From Candidatus Daviesbacteria bacterium (GTDB taxonomy: Bacteria; Patescibacteriota; Microgenomatia; Daviesbacterales; UBA10151), in the NCBI GenBank assembly GCA_041690695.1, contig JBEPVZ010000003.1, positions 13,633-77,632 on the forward strand: a stretch of DNA of 64,000 nucleotides, given 5' to 3'. The position numbers and the translations under genes are program-made. Of this stretch, positions 1-45,398 are shown one piece after another (the first letter of the stretch is position 1; the number at the start of each line of letters is the position of its first letter). A model generated the notes under the pieces. That model was not told the DNA's origin. It saw only the letters and a list, made by a program, of their open reading frames with translations, and searched no databases.

Positions 1-447
1 AGGCAAAAGACGTGGTAAAACTGTTGTTGAAGCCGCTTTATGATGAGCCGCAAAGGCTTCATTAATATAAACGTCACCTAAATCCGCAAGTTCTTTGGCG
101 TAGAGAATGTCGGCTTCATCCTCCCCTTTTTCGAAACGTAAATTTTCTAAGATCTGAAGTCGTTCTGGCGGAAAGTCAAAATCCGGAATCTGACTATTAA
201 ACCAATCGACAATCGGACCAACAGATAACTCTTTAACCTCTTGACCTTCTGGCCGACCAACATGACCTAAAATAATGACTTTTTTAGCATATTGGAGACA
301 GAGATAAAGGCTCGGCAAGGCTGCTTTTAATCGAAAGTCCTCAGCCACGACCCGTTTTCCATTAATTTCATTAAAAGGGACATCAATATCTAGCCTGAGT
401 AAAACAGTTTTATTGGCAATAAAGTGAGGAGTCAAGACCCGAGGCAT
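1..447 (-). CDS. pgk: Phosphoglycerate kinase, N-terminal ~149 codons; gene continues beyond the window start
   Basis: Reverse-complement translation from ATG at 447 reads MPRVLTPHFIANKTVLLRLDIDVPFNEINGKRVVAEDFRLKAALPSLYLCLQYAKKVIILGHVGRPEG. This is the canonical PGK N-terminal substrate-binding region (R-D-N/D-VP ... LSHLGRP-like). No stop before position 1. Confidence 0.8.
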   Translation of the reverse strand, partial: MPRVLTPHFIANKTVLLRLDIDVPFNEINGKRVVAEDFRLKAALPSLYLCLQYAKKVIILGHVGRPEGQEVKELSVGPIVDWFNSQIPDFDFPPERLQILENLRFEKGEDEADILYAKELADLGDVYINEAFAAHHKAASTTVLPRLLP

Positions 448-530
448 AAAGATATATTAGACGATAGTGAGTCGCAGGTGGAAGATAGTATTTTGAAAAG
501 AGAAGAATGTGGTGTGGGCTACGCTAAGCA

Positions 531-605
531 TGGTGGGCAGTAATGGAGTCGAACCATTCACTTCTTCCTTATCAGAGAAGCGTTCTACCGCTGAACTAAC
601 TGCCC
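531..605 (-). tRNA. tRNA-Ile (anticodon GAT), CCA encoded
   Basis: The reverse complement folds as a cloverleaf. Acceptor stem GGGCAGT/ACTGCCC. D-arm GTTC-AGCGGTA-GAAC. Anticodon stem CTTCT/GGAAG with loop CTGATAA (anticodon GAT). T-arm AATGG-TTCGACT-CCATT. Discriminator A followed by CCA. Confidence 0.75.
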
Positions 606-646
606 ATTAGAATGGTATTTTACGTGTCTTTAGCTTTAAAAACAAG

Positions 647-1654
647 TTATGGAACAACAACTGAAACTTTTGGTGTTCCAAATCTACCAATGACTTCTTG
701 GATCTGTTCCCAATTAGAGGCACCAACAAATGGCACTCCAGAATCTGGACCACTTAGATTACCCATAATTTTCCCGATCTCAATAACCGGTAGACGAGCT
801 GCTTTTAGTGTTTCGACGTTTTTTTGCCAATTAATTGGGGTGACCAGATGAGTCGTTAAACCCTTCAAAATATCCGTACTAGTTAATTTTAGGGTGTTGG
901 TGACATCATCTAAAATCGGATGGGCAGGATCCTTCATCCGAAATTTAAAACCTTTCATAATTCTATTGAACTGATTTTGAGCTGGTCCCATTAACGGATG
1001 GTGTGATAATGTTGCTTCTAAATACTCTCGAATTTTAACATCTGGTAAGCTGGCTTGGAGACTTTCAAGTTGACGGCTAACTCCACCCAGGACATATTTA
1101 TTGGCAGCATTAACAACAGTGATTTGAAATGATTGAACGGCAGCTCCAGCTTCTGCAATCTTCTTAGCTAGATCTCCTTCATAAGTCGCTAAAGCGACGG
1201 TGCCTCCAACTTCTTGGGCAACTTTCCACATCACCTCTCCCCGATCTCTGGCCAATCTTAAAACGACATCCCACGACATGACACCTTCTGCTCCCATGGC
1301 AATAATTTGGGCCAGGCTAGAACCCGCCACAAAAGCTTCATTATCTACCCCATTTTCTCTTAAGTATTCAAGGATCATGGCAGTATTCAAAGCATGGCCT
1401 GGCTGAATAACTCGTGTATCCGCAGCGATTTTTTTACGACGGTCTCCTCCAAATAGGCTAATTGGATCATATAAGGCATGTACACCAATCGGGTAACCTT
1501 CAATCTTACCTAAGTTTTTATTAGTCAGATCATAAAGTCGGCGTGCCCCCCGACTGGCCCGCATTAGATGCTCACCAGTTTCACCTGAAGCTAGTTGACC
1601 ACCTTGAGGTGGAATTCCAAGGATATATCCTTCCTGAGTAATTTCTGAGGACAT
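647..1654 (-). CDS. FabD-family acyltransferase (malonyl-CoA:ACP transacylase-like)
   Basis: 335-aa ORF. Motifs align with FabD: AGSSLAQIIAMG (FabD GHSLGE nucleophile-Ser region), RLARDRGEVM, VVNAANKYVLGG (VSPVNFNSPGQVVIAG), SHHPLMGPA (SHCALMKPA catalytic His), WQKNVETL (WTKSVEYM). Confidence 0.6.
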   Translation of the reverse strand: MSSEITQEGYILGIPPQGGQLASGETGEHLMRASRGARRLYDLTNKNLGKIEGYPIGVHALYDPISLFGGDRRKKIAADTRVIQPGHALNTAMILEYLRENGVDNEAFVAGSSLAQIIAMGAEGVMSWDVVLRLARDRGEVMWKVAQEVGGTVALATYEGDLAKKIAEAGAAVQSFQITVVNAANKYVLGGVSRQLESLQASLPDVKIREYLEATLSHHPLMGPAQNQFNRIMKGFKFRMKDPAHPILDDVTNTLKLTSTDILKGLTTHLVTPINWQKNVETLKAARLPVIEIGKIMGNLSGPDSGVPFVGASNWEQIQEVIGRFGTPKVSVVVP

Positions 1655-1719
1655 ACTTTTTAGTATACAAAGATTCCCTAGAGTTACATAGCCATAGTTT
1701 TTTGGTACTATATCCCCAC

Positions 1720-1791
1720 GGCACGGTGGTGAAGTGGTAACACAGGAGTCTGCAAAACTTCGACGCGCGGGTTCGATTCCCGCCCGTGCCT
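1720..1791 (+). tRNA. tRNA-Cys (anticodon GCA), no encoded CCA
   Basis: Acceptor GGCACGG/CCGTGCC. D-arm GTGA-AGTGGTAA-CAC. Anticodon stem GGAGT/ACTTC with loop CTGCAAA (GCA). T-arm GCGGG-TTCGATT-CCCGC. Discriminator T. Confidence 0.75.
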
Positions 1792-1842
1792 CACGAAAGG
1801 TGTCTTATCTTCTTCTTAACTAATTGCTATAGTATCAGGCAA

Positions 1843-2529
1843 ATGCCAAGGTCCATCGAGGAAGAGCAGGTAATTTTTACATCACGTCGAGATCAAGTCA
1901 GTCGATTTTTAAGAGAGCCCGAATTTGAAGATTTAATAAACGATTTACCTGATCAAACTTGCTTAATTGATATCGCCAGTGGAACAGGAGCAATTATTTC
2001 AGCGATTGATCAATCTCTCCATAACCGTTCTAAACAACTTCAAAGCGCAGTCGGAGTCGATAGTTGGGCCATTCACTCTCAGATCAACTTTGATTCACAA
2101 TTAATGCCATTACTTAATAAAGGTCGTTACGCCCTAAATAAAGATGAAGCCGTCCGAAACTTAAGCGCCTATCAAAGTTATTGTGATGTTCGGCTGGTTC
2201 AATCAGATGCTTTAACCTTTTTAAAGCAATACTCGCTCGATAGTTTTGATTTATTAACCGGCTTTGGCCTACCCTGCACTAAATGTCCGGGTGATCTTAA
2301 AGTCGAACCAATTTTAGATTTAATTGATAAAGCTCATTTTGGCCGACCGGTGTTACTAACAATGGGTTCATTCTCAGATAGATACGTGCCATATATTGAA
2401 AAGGCCATTCACCGCCCTCATTACAATAAGTGGCATCTTTATGCTAGGTATTCTAAAAATCCTGAAGATGTAGGCTGGGATACCTGGGTAGTTACAAATA
2501 GAAAATTAGCCCTTCCTGAAGCAGCTTAA
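1843..2529 (+). CDS. Class I SAM-dependent methyltransferase (start moved to internal ATG so as not to overlap tRNA-Cys)
   Basis: The long ORF 1786..2529 overlaps the tRNA. The internal start gives MPRSIEEEQ... Motif I LIDIASGTGAI is typical of the Rossmann-fold SAM-binding site. Confidence 0.55.
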   Translation: MPRSIEEEQVIFTSRRDQVSRFLREPEFEDLINDLPDQTCLIDIASGTGAIISAIDQSLHNRSKQLQSAVGVDSWAIHSQINFDSQLMPLLNKGRYALNKDEAVRNLSAYQSYCDVRLVQSDALTFLKQYSLDSFDLLTGFGLPCTKCPGDLKVEPILDLIDKAHFGRPVLLTMGSFSDRYVPYIEKAIHRPHYNKWHLYARYSKNPEDVGWDTWVVTNRKLALPEAA

Positions 2530-2716
2530 AAACAACTAGACAACTCGAATTCCCAGTTTGAAAAATGATGTTCTAAATAGTGGTGGGTATAGCTTTTTTA
2601 AGAAGGCTATCAGACTTCTGTTACCAAATGCGTGACATTGGTATATATGGATCGAACCCAGGCTATCTTTCCAATTTACATTGAAATTAAGAAATCCTCA
2701 GGTTGACCGAATCTCC

Positions 2717-4168
<1,452 letters not shown>

Positions 4169-4255
4169 TTGTTATCCAAAAATTGGAATTGACAAGAAAA
4201 CTTGTCTTGTTTCCCACCACTATTCAGTACACCATTATCGAGTGACTGAAGAGTG

Positions 4256-7578: not shown

Positions 7579-9048
7579 TCATTGGCCACACAAGGCTATC
7601 GGACAAGAAATTTTCTTTTTGTCGGTATTATTTCCAAACACATCAGTCATCCGCCCCTTCAAGGTATTAAAACAACTTGTTTTTAAGTCTGGTTTGGCGA
7701 CAGATTCACAGAACTGGCTCCCTTGAGTAGTCAAGGCGTCCCCAGAAAAATCAATCACCACGTTTAAGGCTCCTATAATACAATCTTTAGTATAGTTGGG
7801 ATCAACTAAATCACACAAAGCTAGTGTTTTTTGGGGATTATGGAGCATCTGGCCAGACGCATCTCGACCAAAACTCTGAAAGCAGGTTTCTCGCATATTC
7901 CCAGGCGCACTCAAACATTCTTTAGCCACAACCCCAAAGTTATAACCGGACAGATCAAGCATTCGGCTAGTCTGCATTAGATAACATTGATACTCTGCTG
8001 GATAATTTTGAGCAACCTGATCGCAAGGAAAATATGGATCACTATTAACCCAAGTCGTAGCATGATCGACCGGCGATGCCCCTTTACCTTCGGCAGTAAT
8101 AATATTCTCCATAAAAACCCCGCCATAACATGAGTTTTTAGCAAAATCATCATCTAACTCCTGACATAAATCGAGCGCCCAAGGCAAGTTATAGTTTAAA
8201 TATGCCATGACTCCATGACCAACTCCGTGCAGACATTCAAATTTCGTAAATGAAGTTGGAAACTGGGTACAGAGTTTATCAATTTTAGCCGCCAAATTAT
8301 CTGTTCCTTGTTCATATAAAAAAGCCTCCATCGCCCCGTGATAATAGCCACTGTGACAAGCTGAGGAACCATTATGAAAAACGTTTGAATGAGAGATGTT
8401 GTAAGACAAGCGACCAATTAGATGAGCTTCTTGATGACAATCTAGTTCGGCTCCTCCTCCTGCATCAGCTAAAAGTTTAGTCATAGCTCCATCTCCTCCT
8501 ATAATCTTAATCCAGTAACTCATTTTGGAATCGTCATAAGCTAGCTTCATAAAATCGACTTTAGCTAAGTCTTGAGTTAGTTGGTCAGGGAAAAAATGGT
8601 AATAGATCTTATTGACTAAAACCGTCAGATCATCAAATTTGTCACTCACCCCAGCTTTAACAGTTGTCAGACTGAGCCAAGCTGGGTTATTTTGGCCTGA
8701 AGCTTTAATCGTGCCAGTAAATTGCGGATAAAGGTGATCATGCATATTCCAATCTCCAGCTTTATCAAAGACAAAACTCCAACTCTGACCCGCTTTAATA
8801 CCAGTTTTAGGATCAAATTCCGGATAAATTAGATGAGTTGGGTGAAGATCAGAGGCAGGCCAATGATCTTTTGAATCAACATTTATAAATTTGATAGTGT
8901 CATTCTTATTAATAACTAAATTAGGAGGCTGAAAACCATTTGAAGTCATCTTAACTTCATAAGTAGCCGTTTTGGCAACCGGAGTAGTCGCGGCGAAGTT
9001 GGCTAATAAAAAAATACTGGCCACTAAACAGATAATGGTTTTAATCAT
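7579..9048 (-). CDS. Secreted Cys-rich protein with N-terminal cupredoxin-like beta domain
   Basis: The N-terminal hydrophobic segment MIKTIICLVASIFLLANFAA is a signal peptide or anchor. The next ~100 aa resemble a cupredoxin-like fold. The remainder is rich in Cys/His (HGVGHG, many C). No confident family. Confidence 0.45.
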   Translation of the reverse strand: MIKTIICLVASIFLLANFAATTPVAKTATYEVKMTSNGFQPPNLVINKNDTIKFINVDSKDHWPASDLHPTHLIYPEFDPKTGIKAGQSWSFVFDKAGDWNMHDHLYPQFTGTIKASGQNNPAWLSLTTVKAGVSDKFDDLTVLVNKIYYHFFPDQLTQDLAKVDFMKLAYDDSKMSYWIKIIGGDGAMTKLLADAGGGAELDCHQEAHLIGRLSYNISHSNVFHNGSSACHSGYYHGAMEAFLYEQGTDNLAAKIDKLCTQFPTSFTKFECLHGVGHGVMAYLNYNLPWALDLCQELDDDFAKNSCYGGVFMENIITAEGKGASPVDHATTWVNSDPYFPCDQVAQNYPAEYQCYLMQTSRMLDLSGYNFGVVAKECLSAPGNMRETCFQSFGRDASGQMLHNPQKTLALCDLVDPNYTKDCIIGALNVVIDFSGDALTTQGSQFCESVAKPDLKTSCFNTLKGRMTDVFGNNTDKKKISCPIALCGQ

Positions 9049-9106
9049 TTCTTAATATAGGATACCTTGACAAGCCATCAGTTACAAAGGGATAATAATT
9101 TTAGTA

Positions 9107-9574
9107 ATGTCCAGTAAATCCCTAGCTATTTTAATTGTTGTTAGCCTAATTTTGATAATTGCAGCCGGCTTTGGCGGATACTCCTATGGTAAGACTCAAA
9201 ACTCACCTCAAATTCTTCCACTCACAGCCGTCTCTTCACAGACACCAGTATCAGACAGCAATACTTTGCCTTTAGATTTTGCTAATCAAGTCACTTTTCA
9301 AGGTAAGGTTATTCAACTAACAGGTAGCGAAGCAGTGGTAACCAGTCTCAATAATCAGACCAAGACTTTTGTTATTTCCAAAACTGTTAATATCATTGAT
9401 GCTTCAATTCCCCCAAAACCTGGCACAGTATCTGTTAATCCGACCTTAACAACAATCCCACTAAATAAGTCGGCTGCCATTACTTTAGTGCTAATTAATA
9501 ACCAATATCAGATTACAAATGTCATGATCACCCCCCAAATTGCCACTCCTGCTCCAGCTAACTTAACTAAATAA
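9107..9574 (+). CDS. Small N-terminally membrane-anchored protein (paralog of 12384..12836)
   Basis: N-terminal TM helix LAILIVVSLILIIAAGFGG. The C-terminus ...YQITNVMITPQIATPAP matches the C-terminus of the 12384 ORF (...EYQITNVLLAPPTH). Confidence 0.5.
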   Translation: MSSKSLAILIVVSLILIIAAGFGGYSYGKTQNSPQILPLTAVSSQTPVSDSNTLPLDFANQVTFQGKVIQLTGSEAVVTSLNNQTKTFVISKTVNIIDASIPPKPGTVSVNPTLTTIPLNKSAAITLVLINNQYQITNVMITPQIATPAPANLTK

Positions 9575-9579
9575 CCAAC

Positions 9580-10173
9580 ATGTCGAAGAAACATACCCTA
9601 CTCTGGTTTGGGATGATTATTTTAGGATGTTTTCTAATCGTTGCTCTATCTCTCTGGATTGCTCGAGTGAGGCTGGCCTCCACTCAAGTCGACTCTAGAA
9701 GTCAGAAAACGTCGTTAGTAGTGAAAGCTCCACCTCAAAATAATACTCCCACAAGCGTTCTGTCATTTTCTCCAGCGACCTTAGTTGTAGCCACAGCGTC
9801 AGCCCGTCAAGTCGAGACGGTTTTTGTTAATATTGATTCCGGGATGAATGATCTCCAAAAGATTAACCTCGATCTAAATTATGATCCCAATGTATTAACT
9901 AACCTTGAAGTCAGTCCTGGAGGAGCCGTCCTTTATAGTTCGCCGGATGTTAAATCTTCAGCCGAAAACGGTCATATTAATCTGTCCGCAACCCTCAACA
10001 CCAGTGGTTCGACAGCCTCATCAATTAAAGGTCCTGTTTTAAAAATTAGCTTTACCCCAAAGAGTGGAATATTCACGACTAACATCAAGTTTCTACCGAC
10101 CACAACTTTATTTGGTTCAGACAATAAACCGACTCTTAAATCTATAGCTGAGGAGGTCATACGCACAAATTAA
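9580..10173 (+). CDS. Membrane-anchored hypothetical protein (197 aa)
   Basis: N-terminal TM helix LLWFGMIILGCFLIVALSLWIA, then a Ser/Thr-rich extracellular region. Confidence 0.45.
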   Translation: MSKKHTLLWFGMIILGCFLIVALSLWIARVRLASTQVDSRSQKTSLVVKAPPQNNTPTSVLSFSPATLVVATASARQVETVFVNIDSGMNDLQKINLDLNYDPNVLTNLEVSPGGAVLYSSPDVKSSAENGHINLSATLNTSGSTASSIKGPVLKISFTPKSGIFTTNIKFLPTTTLFGSDNKPTLKSIAEEVIRTN

Positions 10174-10199
10174 CAACTTTCCTGAGCTTTTTAATAGTC

Positions 10200-12326
10200 T
10201 TGACTGGGTTTGTAATTATCGGTCAAAGTCAATCAGTTTTCGCAATCGGTTTTACCAAAAACTGTTATCCCGTCTCCTGTGATCAAGGAGTAAATACACC
10301 TGGAAACCAGATTACTTTTATTGCTAATTCTCCCGCGACTCAAACAATTTCTGGAAGAACTTACACTCTAAATTGTTGGAACTCTCAAGAAAGTAGTAAT
10401 GCGGGCGGAACAGTTAGCTTAGGCACAAATCTCCCTAGTACCAGTAATTGTACTTTGCAACATAATTACTATTCGATATCGGGCCCTTATGAGGTTAGTG
10501 GCCAAACTCAAGCTTGTTACCTTGATCCTGATTCTCATCTTTGTGTCGGAGGGCTCGAGAACGAATTGCTGGGGTTTGGATCAGTGACAGTTAACTCACC
10601 CGCTGGCTCCCCACCTCCTCCAAGCGGTGGAACACCACCTCCACCTCCTCCAAGCGGTGGAACACCACCTCCACCTCCTCCCCCCCCCTCAGGCTGTACA
10701 ACCTCGTCATGTCAGTGTTCTGTTACAAACTCTTCGGGCGGAGTAACGACAAGCATAATTAATGGCAGCTCTTGTACTTCAGCCGATCAAGCCACTTGCC
10801 AATTTTTCACTGGTGGGAATCCCGGCTGGAGCGCTTCGACCCAAACAATAACGGTTCCAAGCAGTTGTAGTGCACCTCCTCCTCCGAGTGGTGGCGGTGG
10901 CGGCGGCGGATCTTGTGTGGCTGATTATGGCTGTGGTTGTGATGGAAGTGGTCTGCCTTACACTTGGCTATCGTGTCATCAGGATCTAACCACGGCGACC
11001 GTTATTCCTGACCCCGTTGAGGTCGGAACCGATCTAACAATACATGCTCATAGCACCGCTAGTACCAACGCGGCTCTGATTTGGATTTCATATGGGACGG
11101 CCCCACAGACACTATTTGTTGGTGACATTTTCTGTACTGGCTTATCTCCCCGAGATAATGGCGGGGTCGGAAATCTGACCAATGTCCAAGATATTACTTT
11201 TAACTGTAATATTCCGGGTAGTGCTCAAGTCGGTCCTTATAGTTGGGAGTTAGAAATGGGCAATGGCTGGGCCACTGGCACAGGTACGATTATGGCCAAC
11301 GTCCCAACCCCAACCGCAACAATCACTCACGTTCAAGGGAGCACAACCTGTTTACCAACAACCGGCGACGATGGCAGTGGAATCTTAATTACTTGGGGCT
11401 CCGATTTTCCGGTGGATCACCTGTTTGTAGCTGAGCAACGTGGTTATAGTGGAGTATTTACATCCAAGGCCGTTTCTGGAACCAGTACCGATGGACAAGG
11501 CTTTATTCTTAGTAATTATAAATTTTGGCCGGGCATTACTTATTACTTCCAAACTCAAGGCCCTGGTGGCTACACTAGTGAATGGTCAGATCCACTCACC
11601 CCAGTCGCCTGCGCAAACACACCAGGTCCTTTTACCATAACCCAAGCGGTCAGTAGTTGTGTTGGAGGACTCCATAACCATATTGTGTGGAGCTCTTCGT
11701 CTAATACCACCTTCTATTCTGTTAATGGCGGCAGCGCCGGTTGGGCTCCAGCTTGGTTAAATTTAAGCTATGATGATTATGGGGTTAGTGCAGGATCAAA
11801 TTATGACTATACGGTTATAGCCGGTAATGCTTATGGCTCAACCAGCTCTAATACGGTCAATGTTGTAGCGGCAACCTGTGATACTATTCCGCCAACTAAT
11901 AGTTCCATTACAGTTATCCCGTCTGGGACTTGTTGGAGTCCTGATAGTTGGTCTCCCGCCCAACGTGGTGAAATTAGTGGAACTTCGGCTGACAACCCTG
12001 GCGGAAGTGGGATCCAAAAGGTTGAGTTGTATGGTTTTGAGATTCCAAATTACGCTGCTCCAATTTTTGGGCCAGTATTAGCGGCTGGCACTACTTCCTG
12101 GACCGCGATTATGCCAACCAACAATCCTCCTTTACAACCTGGACATACCTATACGTTAAGAGCACTTGCAACTGATAATGGGGGCTTAAGTACTTGGAGT
12201 GCCTATACCCCATTTGGCGGGTTCCTCTGGAATAGTAGCGCAGCTGCTTGTGCAGCCCCGTTCTTAGATACCACCAAAGGCGATGTTCACTCCAATACAA
12301 AAATTGATACCCAAGGGGGGCAATAA
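10200..12326 (+). CDS. Large secreted Cys-rich surface protein, paralog A (start codon uncertain: TTG at 10200 or upstream CTG)
   Basis: The N-terminal ~130 aa and the C-terminal ~100 aa (ending ...GDVHSNTKIDTQGGQ) are homologous to the 12839..15475 product. It has a polyproline/Gly linker and FN3-like stretches. The frame is open from 10152 with no canonical ATG, while the paralog has an extra MWKMKRGYTY N-terminal extension. Confidence 0.55.
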   Translation: MTGFVIIGQSQSVFAIGFTKNCYPVSCDQGVNTPGNQITFIANSPATQTISGRTYTLNCWNSQESSNAGGTVSLGTNLPSTSNCTLQHNYYSISGPYEVSGQTQACYLDPDSHLCVGGLENELLGFGSVTVNSPAGSPPPPSGGTPPPPPPSGGTPPPPPPPPSGCTTSSCQCSVTNSSGGVTTSIINGSSCTSADQATCQFFTGGNPGWSASTQTITVPSSCSAPPPPSGGGGGGGSCVADYGCGCDGSGLPYTWLSCHQDLTTATVIPDPVEVGTDLTIHAHSTASTNAALIWISYGTAPQTLFVGDIFCTGLSPRDNGGVGNLTNVQDITFNCNIPGSAQVGPYSWELEMGNGWATGTGTIMANVPTPTATITHVQGSTTCLPTTGDDGSGILITWGSDFPVDHLFVAEQRGYSGVFTSKAVSGTSTDGQGFILSNYKFWPGITYYFQTQGPGGYTSEWSDPLTPVACANTPGPFTITQAVSSCVGGLHNHIVWSSSSNTTFYSVNGGSAGWAPAWLNLSYDDYGVSAGSNYDYTVIAGNAYGSTSSNTVNVVAATCDTIPPTNSSITVIPSGTCWSPDSWSPAQRGEISGTSADNPGGSGIQKVELYGFEIPNYAAPIFGPVLAAGTTSWTAIMPTNNPPLQPGHTYTLRALATDNGGLSTWSAYTPFGGFLWNSSAAACAAPFLDTTKGDVHSNTKIDTQGGQ
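10611..10688 (+). repeat. Perfect 30-bp tandem repeat (x2.3) followed by a C9 homopolymer, inside the coding sequence
   Basis: CCACCTCCTCCAAGCGGTGGAACACCACCT occurs at 10611-10640 and 10641-10670, with a partial third copy running into CCCCCCCCC (10680-10688). Together they encode PPPPSGGTPPPPPPSGGTPPPPPPPPSG. Confidence 0.85.
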
Positions 12327-12383
12327 TCTTAATAACAGAGAACACCTTGACTTGTTCTCCTGATTGTAGGAATAATTAGAGTA

Positions 12384-12836
12384 ATGCAAAAGTCTGCCAA
12401 AGTTAGCTTAATTGTCGGGGGAATAATTCTAGCTCTAGTCTGTTTACTAATTGGCTATTTGTTAGGTAAAAATCAATTTAGAACGATATTTAGACCCTCA
12501 TTTGGTCAATTAGGCGGAATGACTTCTACAAGTCTAACTTCAAGCTTTGCCAGTCAAGCCAGCTTTAACGGTAAAGTCACTCAAATTAAAGACCAGATGG
12601 CGACAGTGTTGACCATGGATAATCAAACTCGAGACTTTACGATCTCAAAATCAGTGGCAGTTTTAGATCCTGCCGCCAAAAAAGTTGCCAGTGTGTCAGC
12701 GAACTCTAAACTAACCACTATTCCGCTAAATCAACCAGCTTTAATTACCGTTCAATTAGTCTTTAGTCGTCAAGGTAACAACACGACATCGGAATACCAG
12801 ATTACTAACGTTTTACTTGCCCCACCAACTCACTAA
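12384..12836 (+). CDS. Small N-terminally membrane-anchored protein (paralog of 9107..9574)
   Basis: TM helix VSLIVGGIILALVCLLIGYLLG. Shares the C-terminal ...YQITNV... motif with 9107..9574. The following giant gene starts 2 nt after its stop. Confidence 0.5.
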   Translation: MQKSAKVSLIVGGIILALVCLLIGYLLGKNQFRTIFRPSFGQLGGMTSTSLTSSFASQASFNGKVTQIKDQMATVLTMDNQTRDFTISKSVAVLDPAAKKVASVSANSKLTTIPLNQPALITVQLVFSRQGNNTTSEYQITNVLLAPPTH

Positions 12837-12838
12837 TA

Positions 12839-15475
12839 ATGTGGAAGATGAAAAGAGGTTATACCTACAAATTAACCGCTTATTTATTTAGTTTTTTTGT
12901 GGTCTTAACTGGATTTCTGGTTCTCGGTCAGGGCCATTCAGTTTTTGCGATTGGGACAATTAAGAATTGTTACCCTGCTTCCTGTGATCAAGGACCGTCA
13001 ACCAGCGGCAACCAGATTACTTTCAGTGCTAACTCCCCCCAAACTCAAACCGTGGCCGGAAGAACATATACTTTATCTTGTTGGAACTCCCAGATGAGCT
13101 CAACTTCTGGGGGGGTAGTCACAATTGGGAATGATATCCCCAGTAATAGTCAATGTACTTTTCAACACACTTACTACTCGACCTCCGGCCCGTACGATGT
13201 CAGTGGTCAAACCCAGGCTTGTTACCTAGATCCTGATTCCCATACCTGTACCGCTGGACTGGAGAATGAAACGGTAGGTTTTGGTTCAATAACTGTTCAG
13301 GCTTGGTCAAGCCCAGCACCACCACCACCAAGTAGCGGCAGCTATTCATATGGGGTAAGTATTAATCCCAACCATGGTGGACAAATCACAAGCATGGCGA
13401 CAAGTGTCACAACTGATAATCCAGGTTACAGTTCAGCAACAATTTACTATGATGGATCATTCATTTGTAATATAGGCGCGAGTAAAAGTGGTGCCTGCAC
13501 TTCTCTGGGTGGGAATCAAGGCAGTCATACTGTCCGAGCCGATTTTGCTAATGGTGGATCGGCTACCACAACTTATACCGTTGATCCAGGACAAGGCCCT
13601 CAACCAACTCCACCTCCAAGTTGTCCTTGTGGAAGTTTTTTGAGTTGTAATAATAATGGAGTGCCTGGGGATGGCTCTAATCCGAGTTGTAGTAATCCGA
13701 CCTACCAATGCTATGGTGTGCTTTCAGATGGAAGTTGTGGCGGTGGAACGAACAGTGTTACTGGCACCTTAACTCCTGATCCAGTCTTGGTTGGAAATAG
13801 CGTCACAGTCACTGCCGTTAACAATGCTTCGTCAGCTGATGCAGTCTTTATCTGGTATCAAGGCAACCCTAGCTGTCTAACAAATGGCCCTGGTAAATGG
13901 AGCTGTGGACATGATCCTAGCGCCCTGAGCTACTTCCCTCCTCCAGGTTTTGGTGCGGATGTCACTTGCTCTGCATCGCCATCCTCTCCTGGGAGTAAAA
14001 CAACTGTCATTACTTGCCCTATTCCTGCGAATGCCACTCTGGGTCAGTATCATTGGTACGTATCCAACGGGACCACTTCTGAAGCAAGCAATGGAGGTTC
14101 TTCATATAATGGCACCATCGTTGATGGAAATAGTTGTAACGATCCTAAATATAGGATCTCTCCTAATACCGGACCAATCGGTACTCAAATTACTATCTCA
14201 GGTTGGCCAGCTGGAAACTACCAATTAGGTATCCAACCAAATATGTCAAATGACCAGGAACTCTTTAGTCAGCCAAATTATGCCAGTTGGTCAAACCTCG
14301 GCCCAGTCACTATGGGTGGTGATAGTAACCATGCCACTTGGACAGTGACTCAACCTCCTATCAACCCTGGTAGGTTTGTAGCCTTAATGTTCACGACAAA
14401 CATCAATGCTCCCTGGAGTGGTCAAACTGTGACTTGTCCTTTTACACCAACTGCGACACCAGTAGCCCCTGGAGCTTTCGACTTTACCTCAAGCACCGGA
14501 ACAGTCTGTACGAGTGGGACTCCTCATAATGATATCTACTGGACTCAATCGAGTGGCGCTGATACCTACTCTCTCTGGCGTTCTGATCCAAATGGACCCG
14601 GTTCATATATTGCCACCCTGGCTTCTTGGCAAACCAGTTTTGCTGATTACAACGTTACACCTGGAGTAGTTTATACGTACATACTTTATGCCCAGAATTC
14701 GGTTGGATTTACCCAGACAAGCACTTTCGACAAAGTTATAACCACCTCAACATGTGGCCCAGCGGGAATTACGCTTGATCCACCAACAACCTCATGTAGC
14801 GGTAGCCCGGCTAAACCAACCGTTTACCTAGCGTGGAGTAGTGCTGGACCTGGAGTAACCTACAGTATTCATCGTCAAGATTATGGCTTTATTCTAACTG
14901 ACTGGTTTGGTGGTGGGTACCCAGATAGCACCGTTAATCAAGGCACAAACTATACCTATTATATTGAGGCTAAAGATTCCTCCGGCCTAACTACCGACTC
15001 AAACACCCAATCAATCACCTCCGCCAGTTGTGATGGGATAGCTCCTCCCGACGTCAATATTAGTGGTGGACCAACAGCCGCTTGTTACTCCCCTACAACT
15101 TGGGCTGGTGAAACCCCTATTAAAGTCATTGCTAACGATGATCCAGGTGGAAGTGGTATTAAATCAGTAGCGGTTTTACTTTATGAGGTCAATTCACCAT
15201 CTGACACCTTAGTTAAGTCCTACCCAACAACTTTCACAGGTGGCTATTGGCAAACCGCCCCGGGAGTACCTCAAGCGTCAGATTTTACTTCGGGTCAAAG
15301 CTATTATCTTCGAGCTACCGCCACCGATAACGCGAATAATACTTCGGCTCCAAGTATTAAAACTCCAGTCTTTGTCTGGAGTAATACTGCGACAGGTTGT
15401 CTTAATCCGTTCTTAAATACAACTCTTGGAGATGTCCATTCTAATACCAAAATTGATACTCGTGGTGGACAATAA
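12839..15475 (+). CDS. Large secreted Cys-rich surface protein, paralog B (878 aa)
   Basis: Signal peptide MWKMKRGYTYKLTAYLFSFFVVLTGFLVLG. The conserved N-terminal domain (KNCYPASCDQG...QACYLDPDSH) and C-terminal domain (...LGDVHSNTKIDTRGGQ) are shared with 10200..12326. The middle is variable, Cys/Gly/Ser/Thr-rich with FN3-like repeats. Confidence 0.65.
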   Translation: MWKMKRGYTYKLTAYLFSFFVVLTGFLVLGQGHSVFAIGTIKNCYPASCDQGPSTSGNQITFSANSPQTQTVAGRTYTLSCWNSQMSSTSGGVVTIGNDIPSNSQCTFQHTYYSTSGPYDVSGQTQACYLDPDSHTCTAGLENETVGFGSITVQAWSSPAPPPPSSGSYSYGVSINPNHGGQITSMATSVTTDNPGYSSATIYYDGSFICNIGASKSGACTSLGGNQGSHTVRADFANGGSATTTYTVDPGQGPQPTPPPSCPCGSFLSCNNNGVPGDGSNPSCSNPTYQCYGVLSDGSCGGGTNSVTGTLTPDPVLVGNSVTVTAVNNASSADAVFIWYQGNPSCLTNGPGKWSCGHDPSALSYFPPPGFGADVTCSASPSSPGSKTTVITCPIPANATLGQYHWYVSNGTTSEASNGGSSYNGTIVDGNSCNDPKYRISPNTGPIGTQITISGWPAGNYQLGIQPNMSNDQELFSQPNYASWSNLGPVTMGGDSNHATWTVTQPPINPGRFVALMFTTNINAPWSGQTVTCPFTPTATPVAPGAFDFTSSTGTVCTSGTPHNDIYWTQSSGADTYSLWRSDPNGPGSYIATLASWQTSFADYNVTPGVVYTYILYAQNSVGFTQTSTFDKVITTSTCGPAGITLDPPTTSCSGSPAKPTVYLAWSSAGPGVTYSIHRQDYGFILTDWFGGGYPDSTVNQGTNYTYYIEAKDSSGLTTDSNTQSITSASCDGIAPPDVNISGGPTAACYSPTTWAGETPIKVIANDDPGGSGIKSVAVLLYEVNSPSDTLVKSYPTTFTGGYWQTAPGVPQASDFTSGQSYYLRATATDNANNTSAPSIKTPVFVWSNTATGCLNPFLNTTLGDVHSNTKIDTRGGQ

Positions 15476-15476
15476 G

Positions 15477-16406
15477 ATGAACCGATCTTTACCAAAAACT
15501 AAATATTTATTAGTCAGTAGTTGGATCTTCGTCCTAAGCTTTTGGGCTTTTGGGGTCTTACCAGCGAGCGTCTTAGCTCCAAGCTCAGCGGCCTCTTCAT
15601 GTGGTGATTCTCCTCGGGCCAATGGCTTAGTCACTAGTCCCAGTCTCGATACCTCAGTCGGAGTTAAATTTGGAACAACCGCCGGATCGTGTGTAACTAA
15701 TACTAACGAAGCCGCTCTGCCGACCTTTCAGATCCAAAGCTATGATGACCTTAGAGCTTTATATTATGATCAATTTAAAGCGCATAGCGGAGTAACTAAA
15801 AGAAGTTTAAGTGAATCTATAAATTTAAGTACTCTAAATCCGATCAATTTTAGTGGTGATAATATTTGGTTTACAAATTTATCAAATTTCAATATTCCTA
15901 GTTCGGGGATAACAGGCAGTGGTACTCAAGTTATCTTTATTGATGGCGAGTTAGAGATTCAACATGATATTAATTATCACACTGGCAACGCCGCTGGAGG
16001 GTTAGTTTTTATCGTTAAAGGCAATATTAATATTGACGCCAGTGTTCATCAGATCGATGCTTATTTAATTTCCGGACAAACAATCTGCACAGGCTATGAC
16101 TTTGGGAGTAATAGTTGTCCAGGAGGGCTAGCGGCTAAAGATACTGTCCCATTAGTAATCAATGGAGGGCTCGTTTCATTAAACAATAGTACTTCTATTC
16201 GCTTTAGACGAGATCTAACTGATAATAGTACCGCAGCCGAGCAAGTTAATTATGATCCAAAGTATCTTTATCTCTTAAAAGGGATGGTTTCTCAAAGTTT
16301 AAGTATTACTACTCAAAACACTAATTTTGCCCCAACCCCAGCTCCTTTGCCGACGAGAACAGCTTTTCCAACTTCTACTCCAGCTTGTGTCCCACCAGCC
16401 TGTTAG
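15477..16406 (+). CDS. Secreted hypothetical protein (start set at ATG 15477: MNRSLPKTKYLL...)
   Basis: Signal-peptide-like N-terminus LVSSWIFVLSFWAFGVLPASVLA. The gene starts 1 nt after the stop of the preceding giant gene. It has a Pro/Thr-rich C-terminus ending in Cys residues. Confidence 0.45.
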   Translation: MNRSLPKTKYLLVSSWIFVLSFWAFGVLPASVLAPSSAASSCGDSPRANGLVTSPSLDTSVGVKFGTTAGSCVTNTNEAALPTFQIQSYDDLRALYYDQFKAHSGVTKRSLSESINLSTLNPINFSGDNIWFTNLSNFNIPSSGITGSGTQVIFIDGELEIQHDINYHTGNAAGGLVFIVKGNINIDASVHQIDAYLISGQTICTGYDFGSNSCPGGLAAKDTVPLVINGGLVSLNNSTSIRFRRDLTDNSTAAEQVNYDPKYLYLLKGMVSQSLSITTQNTNFAPTPAPLPTRTAFPTSTPACVPPAC

Positions 16407-41231: not shown

Positions 41232-41640
41232 CTATGACAAAACTCGCACTATCACTACCAGGCTTTCAAAATGCGGTCTCAAGTCCTGCTAAAACTCAGT
41301 ATCAGGATCTTGGCTCACTACTTTCAGGTGGTTACTCTATTCTGCTTTTGATTGCTGCCTTTTTAATGGTTTATTGGTTGTCTTGGGGAATCTTTCAATA
41401 CATCTTTGCTGGTGGTGAAAAAGAAAAGTTAGCTCATGCTCGGAAAAGAATTACTTGGGCGATTGTTGGTTTTATCATTATTGTTTTAGCTTTTACGATT
41501 CGTTACTTTGTAGAAGAAGTCTTCCCCCCTCAAAATACATTAACCCAAGTCGATACTCCCCTTAACTATGTCTCAACTGATCTTCAACAACCCCCAACTG
41601 CAGTTCAACAACCTCAAACTGGTGGTACTGGTGGTCAAGC
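41226..41640 (+). repeat. Copy A of a perfect 415-bp direct repeat (copy B at 46560..46974)
   Basis: Identical by direct comparison, from 8 nt upstream of the ATG through codon ~135. Identity ends inside the Gly/Thr-rich linker, where copy A has an extra 21-nt GGTGGQA-type unit. Confidence 0.9.
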
Positions 41641-43237
41641 CGACGGAACAGGCGGCCAAGCTGGTACAAATGGTCAGCAAAATCCCAGCCAACACAGCCC
41701 TATTTTACCAAATGCTCCTGGGGGACCAGCTCAACAGGATCAGATTACAACCAATATTCCTGAAACTTGCCAGCAATATGTTTCAGCTCATGGTTCAGCT
41801 ATAGCCGACATTCAAGGCTATAATCTATCTTTTAATGTTCCTAATTATGGAATATTAAATGTCGCCATGAAAAGTCGAGGTATTTATTTGACTGACGATA
41901 CCCCCGTTACAACGGCACAATCTCAGAGAGAGCAAACTAAAAACGCCTTTTTCCAAGTCATCAAACAACAATATTTAAGAAACTTTGCTTATGATCTGGT
42001 TAAAAGACGGAAAAGAGAAGCTGATCTGGGAGTTGATCCCAAAAATCAGAGTTTTGATATAAATCACAATTTTAATAATACCGATGAGATCAAAACTGAG
42101 TTTAGTAAGTTAGATAATTCGTATAAGTCCACCTTCAATGGTGGTGAACCAGATAGTATTGGTTGTAGCTTTAATCCTGATCCAGGCACTGCTCTATATT
42201 ACCCCGCTCCTTTATATAACTGTACTAAAAATACCCAATTAGATAATGGCATGATTGAGATAATCGCTGATGGAGTTGCCTCAGATTATAAAAACTCGAC
42301 AGTGGCAGAGCGTTACGACTGGGCTAACAAAGTTGAAGATTATAAATTCGGTAATTTAAACTACACCCTTCCTTACTACTTTACTGACTTTATTGCTAAT
42401 CCTTCGAGCACCAATGGTGCATCGTCTGGGGCTGCCAAGGCCTGTTATGTAACTGGATTTGTTCACAACCCGCAATTAGATAATCTAAACCGTCAGGCTA
42501 ACTTTTCTGAGTTTGGTTGCTATGAATTGGCAGTCACAGGGCCTGGCAATTCAGCTATTCCGCTTGAAAACGGCAACTTAAATCAACAAGTTCAAGATTA
42601 TGAGAACTCTGTCGCTTCGCATCAACCTGGTGGGACATCAACAATCAAGGCGACCTTGCCAAACGACGATAAAGCTTTTAAATATGTTGAAGGTGCACCA
42701 GGTCAGACGGTTGATGCAAGTGGTCAAATAATAATTGGGGCGGTCGGCGAACCACTCTATGCACAAGGTACGGGCAATGTTGTTAAAAAGTTATTTCACT
42801 ACGATTACGATACCAGTAAGATTATCTGGAACGACCCAACTAGCTATTATGTTATTCCAAATATTCAAACTGATCCTAATAATCCAAGTTGGAATCCGAT
42901 TATTGATAAAATTGGCCAAGGTTTAGGATTAAACGCGGTCGAGATTACGGCTCTTAAGTTGAGTATGATTCATCACGCTATGTACTTTACTCCCCAGGAA
43001 GCACCTTACCTAAAAATCTCAGTGGTTGATCCTGCTGAAGTCAAGGAAAAAATACCATTAAGTATTGATAGTAGCTATGGTGAGGTTGATCCTAAATCTT
43101 TCCACCGTAATAACTTACTAGTTGAGAAACTAAAAATCGATGACCCCACCTTACATGGTCATGAACCCCAGCTTAAACCTTATCCCGTTTCCCCAACACC
43201 GGTAATTATGTTTGAAACGGGTGTGGCAGTGAGATAA
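41234..43237 (+). CDS. Fusion protein: N-terminal VirB2/TrbC-like (CPR T4SS-pilin-like) two-helix hairpin plus long variable C-terminal ectodomain (667 aa)
   Basis: N-terminal [65 protein letters not shown] has a TM1 / short basic loop / TM2 topology like VirB2/TrbC pilins. It is followed by a GTGGQ-rich linker and a ~500-aa unique region. The first 415 nt are identical to the 46568 gene. Confidence 0.6.
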   Translation: MTKLALSLPGFQNAVSSPAKTQYQDLGSLLSGGYSILLLIAAFLMVYWLSWGIFQYIFAGGEKEKLAHARKRITWAIVGFIIIVLAFTIRYFVEEVFPPQNTLTQVDTPLNYVSTDLQQPPTAVQQPQTGGTGGQADGTGGQAGTNGQQNPSQHSPILPNAPGGPAQQDQITTNIPETCQQYVSAHGSAIADIQGYNLSFNVPNYGILNVAMKSRGIYLTDDTPVTTAQSQREQTKNAFFQVIKQQYLRNFAYDLVKRRKREADLGVDPKNQSFDINHNFNNTDEIKTEFSKLDNSYKSTFNGGEPDSIGCSFNPDPGTALYYPAPLYNCTKNTQLDNGMIEIIADGVASDYKNSTVAERYDWANKVEDYKFGNLNYTLPYYFTDFIANPSSTNGASSGAAKACYVTGFVHNPQLDNLNRQANFSEFGCYELAVTGPGNSAIPLENGNLNQQVQDYENSVASHQPGGTSTIKATLPNDDKAFKYVEGAPGQTVDASGQIIIGAVGEPLYAQGTGNVVKKLFHYDYDTSKIIWNDPTSYYVIPNIQTDPNNPSWNPIIDKIGQGLGLNAVEITALKLSMIHHAMYFTPQEAPYLKISVVDPAEVKEKIPLSIDSSYGEVDPKSFHRNNLLVEKLKIDDPTLHGHEPQLKPYPVSPTPVIMFETGVAVR

Positions 43238-43241
43238 AGTT

Positions 43242-45344
43242 ATGGTCACCAACTCTGCGACAGACCCACTTTCAAAAAATAAGCGTAAATTAAAATTAAT
43301 TTTAATTGGTTTCGGATTACTGGTTATCTTTATACCAATTTCAGCATTCTTAATTAATCATTTTCAAAGGCCATCAACTCCACCTAGCCTAGCCGATTTT
43401 CCACAAATGACCCCATACACTAGTAGTGCCTCGGCCTTTGTAGCTAATCAGTTAATTGTTAAATATAAAGAGGCTTCATCTCCAGCCGAGTTAACGGACA
43501 ACAATGAAAAAGATGCAATTGCCAAGCTCTATGCCGAGCTCGGAGTTTCTTCACAGCTTCAAGCTTATCCTTCAACCGATAACCCAGATCTTAAGGAGTA
43601 CTATCTACTCGAGTTCAAAGCAGGTTCGAGTCTTAGTCTTGCCAAACAGACTCTGTCACAGCTCAAAGAAGTTGAAACCGTCGACCTAAATCCAGTCCTA
43701 AGCTTGCAAGCCACCCAAGTAGCCGGGTTAACTAATGATCTTTACTCTCTATATCAATGGAATTTAGGAAAGATTAATATTGCTCCTGTTTGGAAAGCTG
43801 GTTACCTTGGCTCAGATAAAGTTGGCATAGCAATTTTAGATTCAGGATTAGTTTTTCCTCAAAAGCATCCTGATTTACCCAGCAATATCATTCATGTTAC
43901 AAAACCTGATGACTATAACCAAGCTGCTGAGTTTTATGGAACAGCCCAGAATGACCATGTTCATGGCACTGTTGTAACAGGAATTATTGGTGCGATCAAA
44001 GACAATCATCAAGGTATTAGCGGAGTAAGTCCGATGGTTCAGATATATTCTTATCAAGTTTGTCGAAATGAAGAGTGTGATAGCTTAGCAGCTAGCCAAG
44101 CCCTCGAGTCTATCGCTCAATCCCCTGGCAAGGTTAAAGTAGTCAACTTAAGTTTAGGAGCTCCTAGCCAATCGACACCTTCAGAACCAGTTTGCCCCGA
44201 TTGGGTACAAGGACCAATTAACGATCTAACCAGTAAAGGCATTCTAGTCGTAGCCGGAGTTGGGAATGGTGATTTTACCACTGGTAATCGAGTTGGAATT
44301 GATGCCAAAAACTTTATTCCAGCCTCATGCAAAGGAGTTTTAGGTGTAGCTGCAACTAATGCCAATGACCAAAAAGCTTCATATTCAAATTATGGATCGG
44401 TGGCAAAAATTTCAGCACCGGGAGGTGAGAACGAGGCCAATGGTGCAATTTTATCGACAATTCCATTTGGAGATATTCCTAAGGATGGTCAGCTCGGGCC
44501 TTATGGAAAATATTTCGGCACATCGATGGCTACACCCCAAGTTAGTGCCGTCGCCGCTTTATTGTTTTCAGCCAATCCCGACTTAACTGTCGATAAGATT
44601 AAACAATGTTTAACTGAGGGAGGAGATCCAGTAAGCAACTTAGATCCTAAACAACCAATTGGTCCAAGATTGAACGCCGCTGGAGCTTTTAATACTTGTG
44701 GAATTCAAATCGCAAACACAACCACAGCTGATGCTAAAACAGCAACTCCACCGGTCATCCAACCCGCCCAGCCAAAAACTCCACCTCCTCCCCCGCCACC
44801 GGTCGTTTCAAAAAGTATATTACCCACTCTCCCATCAACCAACACTCCAACTACCCAAACCCCAACGAGTGTTGACTTACCCTCTGCCCTCTTTAAAGAA
44901 GTTAAAGTTGACCCTGAACAAGGCCAACTTAACGCTTTAATTACTGCCAATGTAGCTTTGTCTAATACCCAAACTCATCAGTACAAATTCCACTGGTGTG
45001 CCAATCCAACGGATATCGCGCCTCACCAGATCTGTAACGACATCACTAATTACTTTAACTTTCAAAGAGCTCCATCCGATGGACCGACTCCCAATACCAT
45101 TTTAAATGATCAGATTATTGGTCAATTTAGTCCTTCTTTGATCTGGCAGCCTTCAATTGCAATATCGGACAGAACAACTGGTAATGCTATTTATGGAAAC
45201 TATATTCTTGAAGTTGATGCCTGTAACAAGCAACCTGATGGAACCTGTCAGAACTCCAACAAACAAGATGTTTGTAGCGTTATTCAATACGATGAGTGCG
45301 TTAATTATGATCATTACAATGTCATCTTTCAACTAAACCCCTAA
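43242..45344 (+). CDS. Membrane-anchored subtilisin-like serine protease (peptidase S8) with conserved C-terminal 6-Cys domain
   Basis: N-terminal TM anchor. I9-like propeptide region. Catalytic triad context AILDSG (Asp), HGTVVTG (His), [16 protein letters not shown] (Ser). The C-terminal ~150 aa ([11 protein letters not shown]...DECVNYDH) are shared with the 48777 gene. Confidence 0.8.
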   Translation: MVTNSATDPLSKNKRKLKLILIGFGLLVIFIPISAFLINHFQRPSTPPSLADFPQMTPYTSSASAFVANQLIVKYKEASSPAELTDNNEKDAIAKLYAELGVSSQLQAYPSTDNPDLKEYYLLEFKAGSSLSLAKQTLSQLKEVETVDLNPVLSLQATQVAGLTNDLYSLYQWNLGKINIAPVWKAGYLGSDKVGIAILDSGLVFPQKHPDLPSNIIHVTKPDDYNQAAEFYGTAQNDHVHGTVVTGIIGAIKDNHQGISGVSPMVQIYSYQVCRNEECDSLAASQALESIAQSPGKVKVVNLSLGAPSQSTPSEPVCPDWVQGPINDLTSKGILVVAGVGNGDFTTGNRVGIDAKNFIPASCKGVLGVAATNANDQKASYSNYGSVAKISAPGGENEANGAILSTIPFGDIPKDGQLGPYGKYFGTSMATPQVSAVAALLFSANPDLTVDKIKQCLTEGGDPVSNLDPKQPIGPRLNAAGAFNTCGIQIANTTTADAKTATPPVIQPAQPKTPPPPPPPVVSKSILPTLPSTNTPTTQTPTSVDLPSALFKEVKVDPEQGQLNALITANVALSNTQTHQYKFHWCANPTDIAPHQICNDITNYFNFQRAPSDGPTPNTILNDQIIGQFSPSLIWQPSIAISDRTTGNAIYGNYILEVDACNKQPDGTCQNSNKQDVCSVIQYDECVNYDHYNVIFQLNP

Positions 45345-45398
45345 TAAAAACGAGTCTTTATCCTTGCCTGAAAGTCGATTAGGTGGTAAGTTTAGTAT

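Follow-up and report, generated by a model that had tools for sequence, protein, structure and literature searches.

The 64,000 nt of a Candidatus Daviesbacteria contig analysed here (JBEPVZ010000003.1, positions 13,633 to 77,632 of the forward strand; hereafter the window) contain at 9107–16406 a group of six tightly packed open reading frames (ORFs) on the + strand, which is best read as a hypervariable surface-adhesin island. It encodes two large secreted proteins (giant1 and giant2), two small membrane-anchored proteins (small1 and small2), a cohesin-domain protein and a 309-aa protein, p309. Both large proteins end in the same kind of tail, a self-contained module of about 22 residues found at the C-terminus of diverse exported proteins, and the genes encoding such tails are linked to genes of the p309 family. 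We hold with moderate confidence that this is an adhesin island whose tails dock on p309. The preliminary description of this region gave four ORFs (9107–9574, 10200–12326, 12384–12836 and 12839–15475), and these coordinates match the ORF list. It did not describe the sixth gene, p309 (15477–16406), which also lies inside the interval and turned out to be the key partner. The label giant is kept here as a name, although proteins of 708–878 aa are large, not giant.

The tail has the consensus PWIQTxGGDVHSNxxINTPGGP-COOH. A profile in which the N-terminal domain of the two giants was joined to their C-terminal module was searched exhaustively with HMMER against 1.84 billion representative proteins and gave 44 matches, 20 of which (the two giants included) reached the last positions of both the profile and the protein; the ending pattern of the hits was C-x-x-P-[WFY]-[LI]-[QK]-T-x-x-G-D-V-H-S-N-x-x-I-[ND]-x-P-G-G-P. 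A motif scan of metagenomes added 12 tail loci and, taken together, HMMER matches, metagenome loci and related loci provided 32 distinct tails. In these, G, D and H are invariant and P(-7), T(-3), N(+6; 31/32) and I(+9) are near-invariant. In 25 of the 32 the distance from the G of GD to the C-terminus is exactly 15 residues, and the tail-bearing proteins end 14–19 residues after GD. Their bodies are mutually unrelated (Laminin_G_3, PA14, FN3/immunoglobulin (Ig), Cys-rich or low-complexity), all of them behind signal peptides, and the tail is preceded by Ig-like modules, by PA14 (locus L006, which came from the scan of genome contigs) or by bare low-complexity linkers such as TYPTYP, PPPP and YSQSS. 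Neither a C-terminal membrane helix nor a basic cluster follows the motif, the sole hydrophobic segment being N-terminal. In the AlphaFold2 (AF2) model of giant2, the tail in isolation has no secondary structure (predicted local distance difference test, pLDDT, 55–67). No Pfam or NCBIfam model corresponds to the tail, and no description of it was found in the databases searched or in the literature on the motif and on sorting signals of the candidate phyla radiation (CPR). The preliminary description had regarded an invariant GGQ ending as a possible sorting or processing signal. The idea is strengthened by the presence of the tail at the extreme C-terminus of 32 proteins with unrelated bodies; the invariance did not hold, since the usual ending is GGP and the GGQ of the window is a minor variant. 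Although GDVHS resembles the metallophosphatase motif GDxHG, such a reading was discarded, given that the motif belongs to the final 15 residues, where it comes after either an Ig-like domain or a bare linker, and that the protein encoded downstream is predicted to be a solenoid and not a phosphoesterase.

The genetic link between tail and p309 was evidenced by searching a p309 hidden Markov model against all ORFs of 22 loci. Of 17 distinct loci, 14 were found to have a p309 domain no further than two genes downstream of the tail gene (the window, L002, L005–L008, L010–L014, L016/17/19, L018 and L020), and it was not found near the tail in L004, L015 and L021/22. Usually it is encoded by the very next gene, with a gap of mostly −4 (an ATGA overlap), +1 or +6 nt; in the window p309 begins 1 nt after the giant2 stop. 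The p309 family is extremely rare, comprising 16 clusters among 5.8 billion, whose sole name is "hypothetical protein [Patescibacteria group bacterium]", and therefore its co-occurrence with the tail cannot be due to chance. The preliminary description had instead proposed a coupling of the large proteins to the small anchored ones. This association does recur in several loci, but it is looser than the link from the tail to the downstream p309 gene, which is the tight and conserved one.

No Pfam or NCBIfam model exists for p309, and nothing on it was found in the literature searched. NCBIfam matches to its relatives (internalin, ClfB, TrbJ) were disregarded as single-member and low-complexity. 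AF2, with 15 sequences, predicted a beta-solenoid core flanked by a helix (pLDDT 80–94) and a poorly modelled N-module (pLDDT 38–60). The closest structures in the PDB and BFVD were DUF3494 ice-binding-type solenoids (E 0.15–1; template modelling (TM) score 0.26–0.32), ComZ (6qvi) being also listed, and the only PDB sequence match of the family profile was the DUF3494 antifreeze protein 3vn3 (E 0.49). Pfam DUF3494 itself gave no match at E ≤ 10 in 15 family members. One member matched marginally DUF7305 (E 0.039), a domain that we take to belong to PilX-like pilins. A class III signal peptide or N-methylation motif (G-F-T-L-I-E) was absent from p309 and its 15 relatives, and there was no N_methyl Pfam match. 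The N-module, formed by a Cys loop followed by F-x-I-P-x-Y..L..YY-x-Q-x-K, is separable from the solenoid module, and several members have Tyr in place of the sole candidate Cys of p309 (ICTG). The p309 domain may form the N-terminus, with cargo of up to about 600 residues (LamG-, FN3- or other) behind it, or the C-terminus, as in a protein of 1611 aa; the proteins bearing it carry a variable cargo (LamG-like, FN3, other), and they have no membrane anchor. In L020 (4148–5712) the N-module and the solenoid module are on separate proteins, and in L013 (3266–5743) the N-module ends an 825-aa protein.

Comparison of the related loci revealed that the island turns over rapidly between conserved flanks. 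In many relatives it lies between the SpoU methyltransferase gene and the genes for UppS and a polyprenyl synthase, and the UppS and SpoU flanks share 63–74% identity with those of the window, compared with 27–48% for p309. As for the giants, only the C-module is common in relatives (about 30–36% identity), the N-domain being common to none. L002 has the same gene order as the window, i.e., tail protein, small membrane protein, tail protein and p309 homologue, followed on the opposite strand by UppS and YjbQ. The FN3/Ig-rich giants, together with Laminin_G_3 and PA14 in tail-bearing relatives, fit adhesins. Thus, of the diversifying adhesin or surface-layer system suggested by the preliminary description, the adhesin alternative is favoured by the FN3/Ig and lectin-type modules and by the fast divergence, and no result favoured a surface layer.

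Other genes were observed in or beside this island in related loci. In L003 (3276–8853) the same island holds a cluster resembling those for ribosomally synthesized and post-translationally modified peptides, with nitroreductase, YcaO, NTP_transf_5, PqqD-like and ScmC genes, and also a 76-aa ORF ending in a Cys/Ser/Thr/Gly-rich stretch. A gene for a membrane-anchored SurA/PpiC-type foldase lies directly upstream of the tail-bearing gene in L006 (2492–3454), and a membrane-anchored Peptidase_S74 protein (a tail-spike-type intramolecular chaperone) is encoded next to the p309-like gene of L010 (1130–2368). The latter prompted us to consider a phage origin (tail fibre plus chaperone), which was discarded, as neither p309 nor the tail was found in viral contigs and BFVD gave nothing significant.

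In the window, both the small and the large proteins are paralogous pairs, and the duplication is under purifying selection. The preliminary description had proposed both paralogies and had left them to be decided by alignment statistics, which uphold them. Small1 and small2 share 40% identity over 143 aa (E 1e-23). In the giants, identity is 70% over the N-terminal 133 aa (E 3e-58) and 35% over the C-terminal 284 aa (E 3e-31), both proteins ending in GDVHSNTKIDT(Q/R)GGQ. The conserved N-domain of about 130 aa is thus as it had been described, and the conserved C-region covers about 280 aa instead of about 100 aa. The middles had been considered completely different; nevertheless, BLASTP found in them a homologous domain of about 100 aa (29% identity, E 4e-6), so that the ends are indeed conserved but their contrast with a variable middle was overstated. 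Giant2 differs from giant1 mainly through additional segments. At the DNA level the conserved parts share only 70–78% identity. Nei-Gojobori counts between giant1 and giant2 gave proportions of synonymous (pS) and nonsynonymous (pN) differences of 0.69 and 0.23 for the N-domain and of 0.74 and 0.20 for the last 31 codons. The resulting dN/dS of the N-domain is about 0.14, with synonymous sites saturated, and 8 of 14 identical codons of the final tail show synonymous differences. Saturated synonymous sites together with a low pN indicate that the duplication is old and has been maintained by purifying selection, and that recent gene conversion is not its explanation.

The giants are ordinary in kind, being modular FN3/Ig surface proteins with an orphan N-domain. 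Their Cys content is 3.0–3.4%, against a window mean of 0.57%, and Gly, Ser and Thr add up to 37% against 20%, in agreement with the Cys/Gly/Thr-rich character given in the preliminary description. Its FN3-like assignment was likewise corroborated by structure prediction of giant2. Residues ~570–855 of this protein (AF2, pLDDT 75–93) gave 327 PDB matches at E ≤ 0.001, the top ones being all FN3/Ig arrays, with E-values down to 4e-11. The last Ig-like module of this array (D.xGSGI ... ATDNANN) precedes the tail, and the profile matches Ig-like modules of many surface proteins. The AF2 model of giant2 is confident only for a middle domain and these residues, the N-domain being modelled poorly. 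By sequence, Pfam fn3 remained below threshold on the giants, no Pfam family matched at E ≤ 1, no NCBIfam model matched, and the only PDB match was an "Fn3-like protein" (E 0.075).

The profile searches with the N- and C-domains that the preliminary description had suggested left the N-domain without relatives outside the window and placed the C-module in many proteins. The negative result for the N-domain comes from the exhaustive HMMER search, in which, besides the two window proteins, every best match was in the C-module and none extended to positions 1–111; no homologue of the N-domain was thus detectable among the 1.84 billion representative proteins. In addition, a word-indexed search of the 5.8 billion clusters with giant2 returned only giant2 and giant1, and a scan with the N-domain of species-representative genomes, which evidently do not include the source genome, found no relatives. 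The alignment of the N-domain returned nothing in the word-indexed search, not even itself, and hence this is a weak negative alone.

Each of the six island proteins has one hydrophobic segment, which is N-terminal, and none elsewhere, indicating that all six are exported or membrane-anchored. The AF2 models predicted N-terminal helices at residues 2–29 of giant2 and 8–26 of p309. The start of giant1 is anomalous. Homology of its signal peptide to that of giant2 begins at 10153, an in-frame stop lies at 10149–10151 and the first ATG, GTG or TTG is the TTG at 10200. This may reflect initiation at a near-cognate codon, for instance near 10161–10182, a mistake in the assembly, or a gene in the course of losing its export. 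The 3' end of the cohesin gene overlaps this signal-peptide stretch, and a GAGGAGG sequence is present at 10150–10156.

The cohesin-domain protein (9580–10173) matched Pfam PF00963 with an E-value of 5.2e-9 and 36.9 bits (cutoff 24.1). A phmmer search with it against all ORFs of 21 related loci recovered only itself. Small1 and small2 have no Pfam family match. Their relatives were searched with an ectodomain-only profile, preferred because an iterative profile of the whole protein pulled in any short membrane-anchored protein, and they were detected in L003, L008, L011 and L015. Judged by position, other small anchored proteins adjoin tail genes in L002, L007, L013 and L020. DUF5666 (PF18914) did not match small1 or small2, and its matches in positional equivalents were under the 27-bit cutoff (E 1.4e-4 in L010 and 4e-3 in L007).

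The mechanism that we regard as the most economical is the following. Both large proteins are probably exported via Sec. Each is modular and adhesin-like: a lineage-specific disulfide-rich N-domain, probably the head that binds the ligand, is followed by Pro-rich linkers, by middle domains and by an FN3/Ig stalk, and the unstructured tail of about 22 residues comes last. The tail, regarded as the conserved functional handle, would dock onto p309, which is encoded by the adjacent downstream gene and co-secreted; the contact would probably be non-covalent, the tail folding as it binds, with the Cys-loop N-module and/or the open end of the beta-solenoid as the putative docking surface. In this regard, the tail and the N-module, both conserved, are predicted to be unstructured alone, as expected of segments that fold on binding. 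Docking would join variable cargo proteins of two families into one extracellular complex with a presumed role in adhesion, a single p309 gene would serve both giants, and the small membrane-anchored proteins, plus the cohesin-domain protein here, are candidate tethers to the cell. More tentatively, we also entertain a broader formulation, in which tail and p309 may constitute an unrecognised two-component assembly or sorting system specific to a CPR/Patescibacteria lineage; the tail would complete or cap the solenoid, or be chemically processed by p309, and rapidly shuffled lectin/Ig heads would be plugged onto a common host-attachment scaffold.

Several data weigh against docking of the tail on p309 in an adhesin island. 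First of all, the fold assignment of p309 is weak, all Foldseek E-values being >0.1 and the PDB sequence match having an E-value of 0.49, and 74 of its 309 modelled residues have a pLDDT <50. The three tail loci L004, L015 and L021/22 have no nearby p309, though their contigs are short or end close by. The cohesin gene, a candidate tether, is unique to this window, and giant1, whose signal peptide has no canonical start in the sequence, may not be properly exported or expressed. Furthermore, a degenerate tail-like motif (CDEPYLRTRAGSVHTNQDIDVP) is internal, not C-terminal, in L009, at about residues 596–616 of a 1180-aa LamG protein (195–3737); the p309 homologue encoded downstream of it is the most divergent one. 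Finally, with D and H invariant, N nearly so and the distance to the C-terminus fixed, the tail would also be compatible with a site of chemical processing.

This last point leads to the alternative that the tail serves as a signal for processing or covalent attachment. A dedicated enzyme, either p309 or one encoded elsewhere, would recognise it and cleave it or transpeptidate it to the wall or another protein, in analogy to sortase, exosortase or PorU signals, although the tail has no membrane-spanning segment. The invariant G, D and H, the N kept in all but one tail and the predominant 15-residue spacing look chemically constrained, and a constant tail on variable cargo is a hallmark of sorting signals. 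Nevertheless, we consider this explanation unlikely, since the motif is not followed by a hydrophobic helix or basic cluster, no CTERM, sortase or type IX secretion system (T9SS) model matched, and p309 is a predicted beta-solenoid of no recognisable catalytic family in which the candidate Cys is not maintained in several members. In addition, no sortase-like gene was found with Pfam among the neighbours scanned or among the window ORFs scanned, which lie up to about 19.6 kb and between about 37.2 and 53.2 kb.

Rather less probable is a type IV pilus accessory, with p309 as a ComZ/PilX-like solenoid tip module through which the tail proteins would be loaded as adhesins. The presence of ComZ among the top Foldseek matches of p309 and the weak DUF7305 match of one family member point in this direction. 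So do the type IV pilin-like genes, with a class III leader, located directly downstream of p309-like genes in L006 (7247–8548), L014 (4191–4382), L017 (5582–6883) and L020 (5709–7001); the L006 protein contains Laminin_G_3 (Pfam), and those of L017 (433 aa) and L020 (430 aa) are similar in length. However, these structural and sequence similarities are not significant, the signal peptide of p309 is an ordinary one and not a class III (N-methyl) pilin leader, and neither the island of the window nor most related loci include a pilin gene.

A further explanation is that tail and p309 do not touch each other. The tail would bind an envelope component (peptidoglycan, a wall polymer or the membrane) directly, in the manner of SLH, WxL or LysM modules, or it would bind the small proteins, and p309 would be just another cargo. 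The small membrane-anchored proteins adjoining tail genes in the window, L002, L007, L013, L015 and L020 would agree with this, as would the three tail loci without p309. On the other hand, the tail gene is bound specifically to p309 by overlaps of the ATGA translational-coupling type and by their co-occurrence in 14 of 17 loci, only some loci have a detectable member of the small-protein family, and an unstructured peptide of 22 residues is short for a wall-binding module, all of which makes this explanation very doubtful. Lastly, although a conserved ORF end abuts the conserved start of the next ORF in many loci, it is hardly conceivable that tail and p309 are one gene split by sequencing error, pseudogenisation or programmed recoding, and read-through was discarded, because relative frames and spacings differ among loci (−4, +1, +6 and +39 nt), several in-frame stops follow the tail, p309 has its own signal peptide and the split is present in independent assemblies from many samples.

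The six genes appear to form two duplicated transcription units, the first consisting of small1, the cohesin-domain gene and giant1, and the second of small2, giant2 and p309. The arrangement of a small protein followed by a large one, twice, given by the preliminary description is therefore correct for unit 2 and incomplete for unit 1, where the cohesin-domain gene, which has no counterpart in unit 2, stands between both. The region's two best promoter-like sites are directly upstream of small1 and of small2. Both upstream stretches align, including the −35 and −10 boxes of the two sites, and consequently the duplicated unit seems to include its own promoter. The features of the island are listed in the following table.

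Features of the island and its immediate upstream sequence (window coordinates)
Feature	Position	Strand	Basis or remark
Promoter-like site of unit 1, TTGACA-18-GATAAT	9067..9096	+	11/12, best consensus match of the region; consensus match only
small1, N-terminal membrane anchor and ~100-aa beta-rich ectodomain	9107..9574	+	Paralogue of small2
Membrane-anchored cohesin-domain protein, accessory gene inserted in unit 1	9580..10173	+	Pfam Cohesin PF00963
giant1, secreted modular protein	10152..12326	+	Annotated start TTG 10200; ORF open from 10152
Orphan Cys-rich N-domain of giant1, 6 conserved Cys	10242..10601	+	73% identity to giant2 N-domain
Pro-rich linker of giant1 with exact 30-nt tandem repeat	10611..10670	+	Repeat family, 100% identity; duplication encodes PPPPSGGTPP
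Middle domain of giant1	10992..11294	+	Homologous to giant2 13760–14122 (BLASTP)
C-terminal tail of giant1, CAAPFLDTTKGDVHSNTKIDTQGGQ	12249..12323	+	Fits consensus of 32 distinct proteins; multiple in-frame stops after
Promoter-like site of unit 2, TTGACT-18-AATAAT	12347..12376	+	10/12; consensus match only
small2, membrane-anchored	12384..12836	+	Homology to small1; single N-terminal hydrophobic segment
giant2, signal peptide, orphan N-domain, middle domains, FN3/Ig array and tail	12839..15475	+	ORF, paralogue of giant1
Orphan Cys-rich N-domain of giant2	12947..13306	+	Homology to giant1; AF2 low confidence
FN3/Ig-like array of giant2	14546..15403	+	pLDDT mostly 75–93; Foldseek
C-terminal tail of giant2, CLNPFLNTTLGDVHSNTKIDTRGGQ	15398..15472	+	Fits consensus of 32 distinct proteins; in-frame stops after
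p309, 309 aa, signal peptide, Cys-loop N-module, predicted beta-solenoid core (~15774–16256) and Pro/Thr-rich end	15477..16406	+	Likely start ATG 15477

On its upstream side the island is flanked by a gene on the − strand (7579–9048) encoding a 489-aa exported protein, Cys-rich (3.5%) and with a cupredoxin-like domain at its N-terminus. L003 has a homologue with 35% identity in the equivalent position, and weaker homologues are present in L019, L021 and L022. Elsewhere in the window, a complete bacterial 16S rRNA gene (1400 bits) was identified at 2719–4170 (−), with no 23S gene adjacent, as well as two tRNA genes at 534–605 (−) and 1720–1791 (+). Another tandem arrangement extends over 41234–53197, where subtilases, including one with a fused phosphoesterase domain, take turns with proteins whose N-terminal domain is T4SS_pilin (PF18895). 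These T4SS_pilin genes, the 16S gene without a neighbouring 23S and the Patescibacteria label of one p309 homologue agree with a CPR-like organism.

CPR/Patescibacteria are ultrasmall and mostly uncultured, and the few cultivated ones are attached to host cells. To our knowledge, how the host-contact surface is built in most of their lineages is largely unknown. The present data turn an orphan gene pair into a defined system, comprising a tail on 32 proteins, a coupled partner family and a hypervariable island at a fixed SpoU–UppS position. If tail and p309 bind each other, they would represent a new docking pair, which would help to annotate the surface proteomes of CPR bacteria and to predict genes for host interaction, and which might serve as a small pair for protein tagging. 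If the tail is processed instead, it would represent a new type of sorting signal, one that needs no transmembrane segment.

Among known systems, the cohesin-dockerin pair, which occurs in cellulosomes and in non-cellulosomal proteins, resembles the one proposed here in having variable secreted bodies with a short conserved C-terminal module, for which docking on a dedicated partner is proposed in our case, and a cohesin protein is even encoded in the operon. However, the 22-residue tail lacks the duplicated Ca-binding repeat of dockerins (no DxNxDG-type repeat) and gave no Pfam dockerin match; moreover, the conserved partner is the predicted beta-solenoid p309 and not the cohesin, whose gene is absent from the related loci. 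The signals of the sortase LPXTG, PEP-CTERM, PGF-CTERM and GlyGly-CTERM systems are also constant C-terminal signatures on unrelated exported proteins, with a dedicated partner encoded. Nevertheless, in sortase, exosortase/archaeosortase and rhombosortase signals the motif precedes a transmembrane helix and a basic cluster, and cleavage is carried out by an enzyme of the membrane, whereas the tail has no hydrophobic segment; no NCBIfam or Pfam CTERM or LPXTG model matched, and an LPXTG regular expression found nothing in the window ORFs. The C-terminal domain of T9SS cargo is likewise an element without a membrane helix on diverse surface or secreted proteins. It is, however, a folded beta-sandwich of about 80–100 aa recognised by an outer-membrane machine, whereas the tail has about 22 aa and can follow a bare linker, and Por_Secre_tail/TIGR04183 had no match in the giants.

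The WxL/Csc clusters of Lactobacillales combine large secreted proteins that share a C-terminal module with small anchored proteins, and they are also duplicated and strain-variable; unlike them, the six island proteins have no WxL, DUF916 (Pfam) or LPXTG, and tail and p309 are unrelated in sequence to Csc components. The predicted core of p309, a beta-solenoid with a helix beside it, recalls the DUF3494/IBP-1 and ComZ/PilX solenoids, but their similarity to p309 is not significant, as indicated above, and p309 has no pilin leader. A purely inferential comparison can be made with donor-strand or strand exchange, as in chaperone-usher and Bacteroidia type V pili, in which a terminal unstructured peptide completes the fold of the next subunit; no usher, chaperone or lipoprotein-protease machinery accompanies the tail, and a solenoid or Cys-loop module, not an Ig-like pilin, would act as acceptor. 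The pair formed by the tail and p309 matches no Pfam or NCBIfam model and was not found in the literature searched, and the display of surface proteins by means of a conserved C-terminal module and a dedicated partner is already known in kind.

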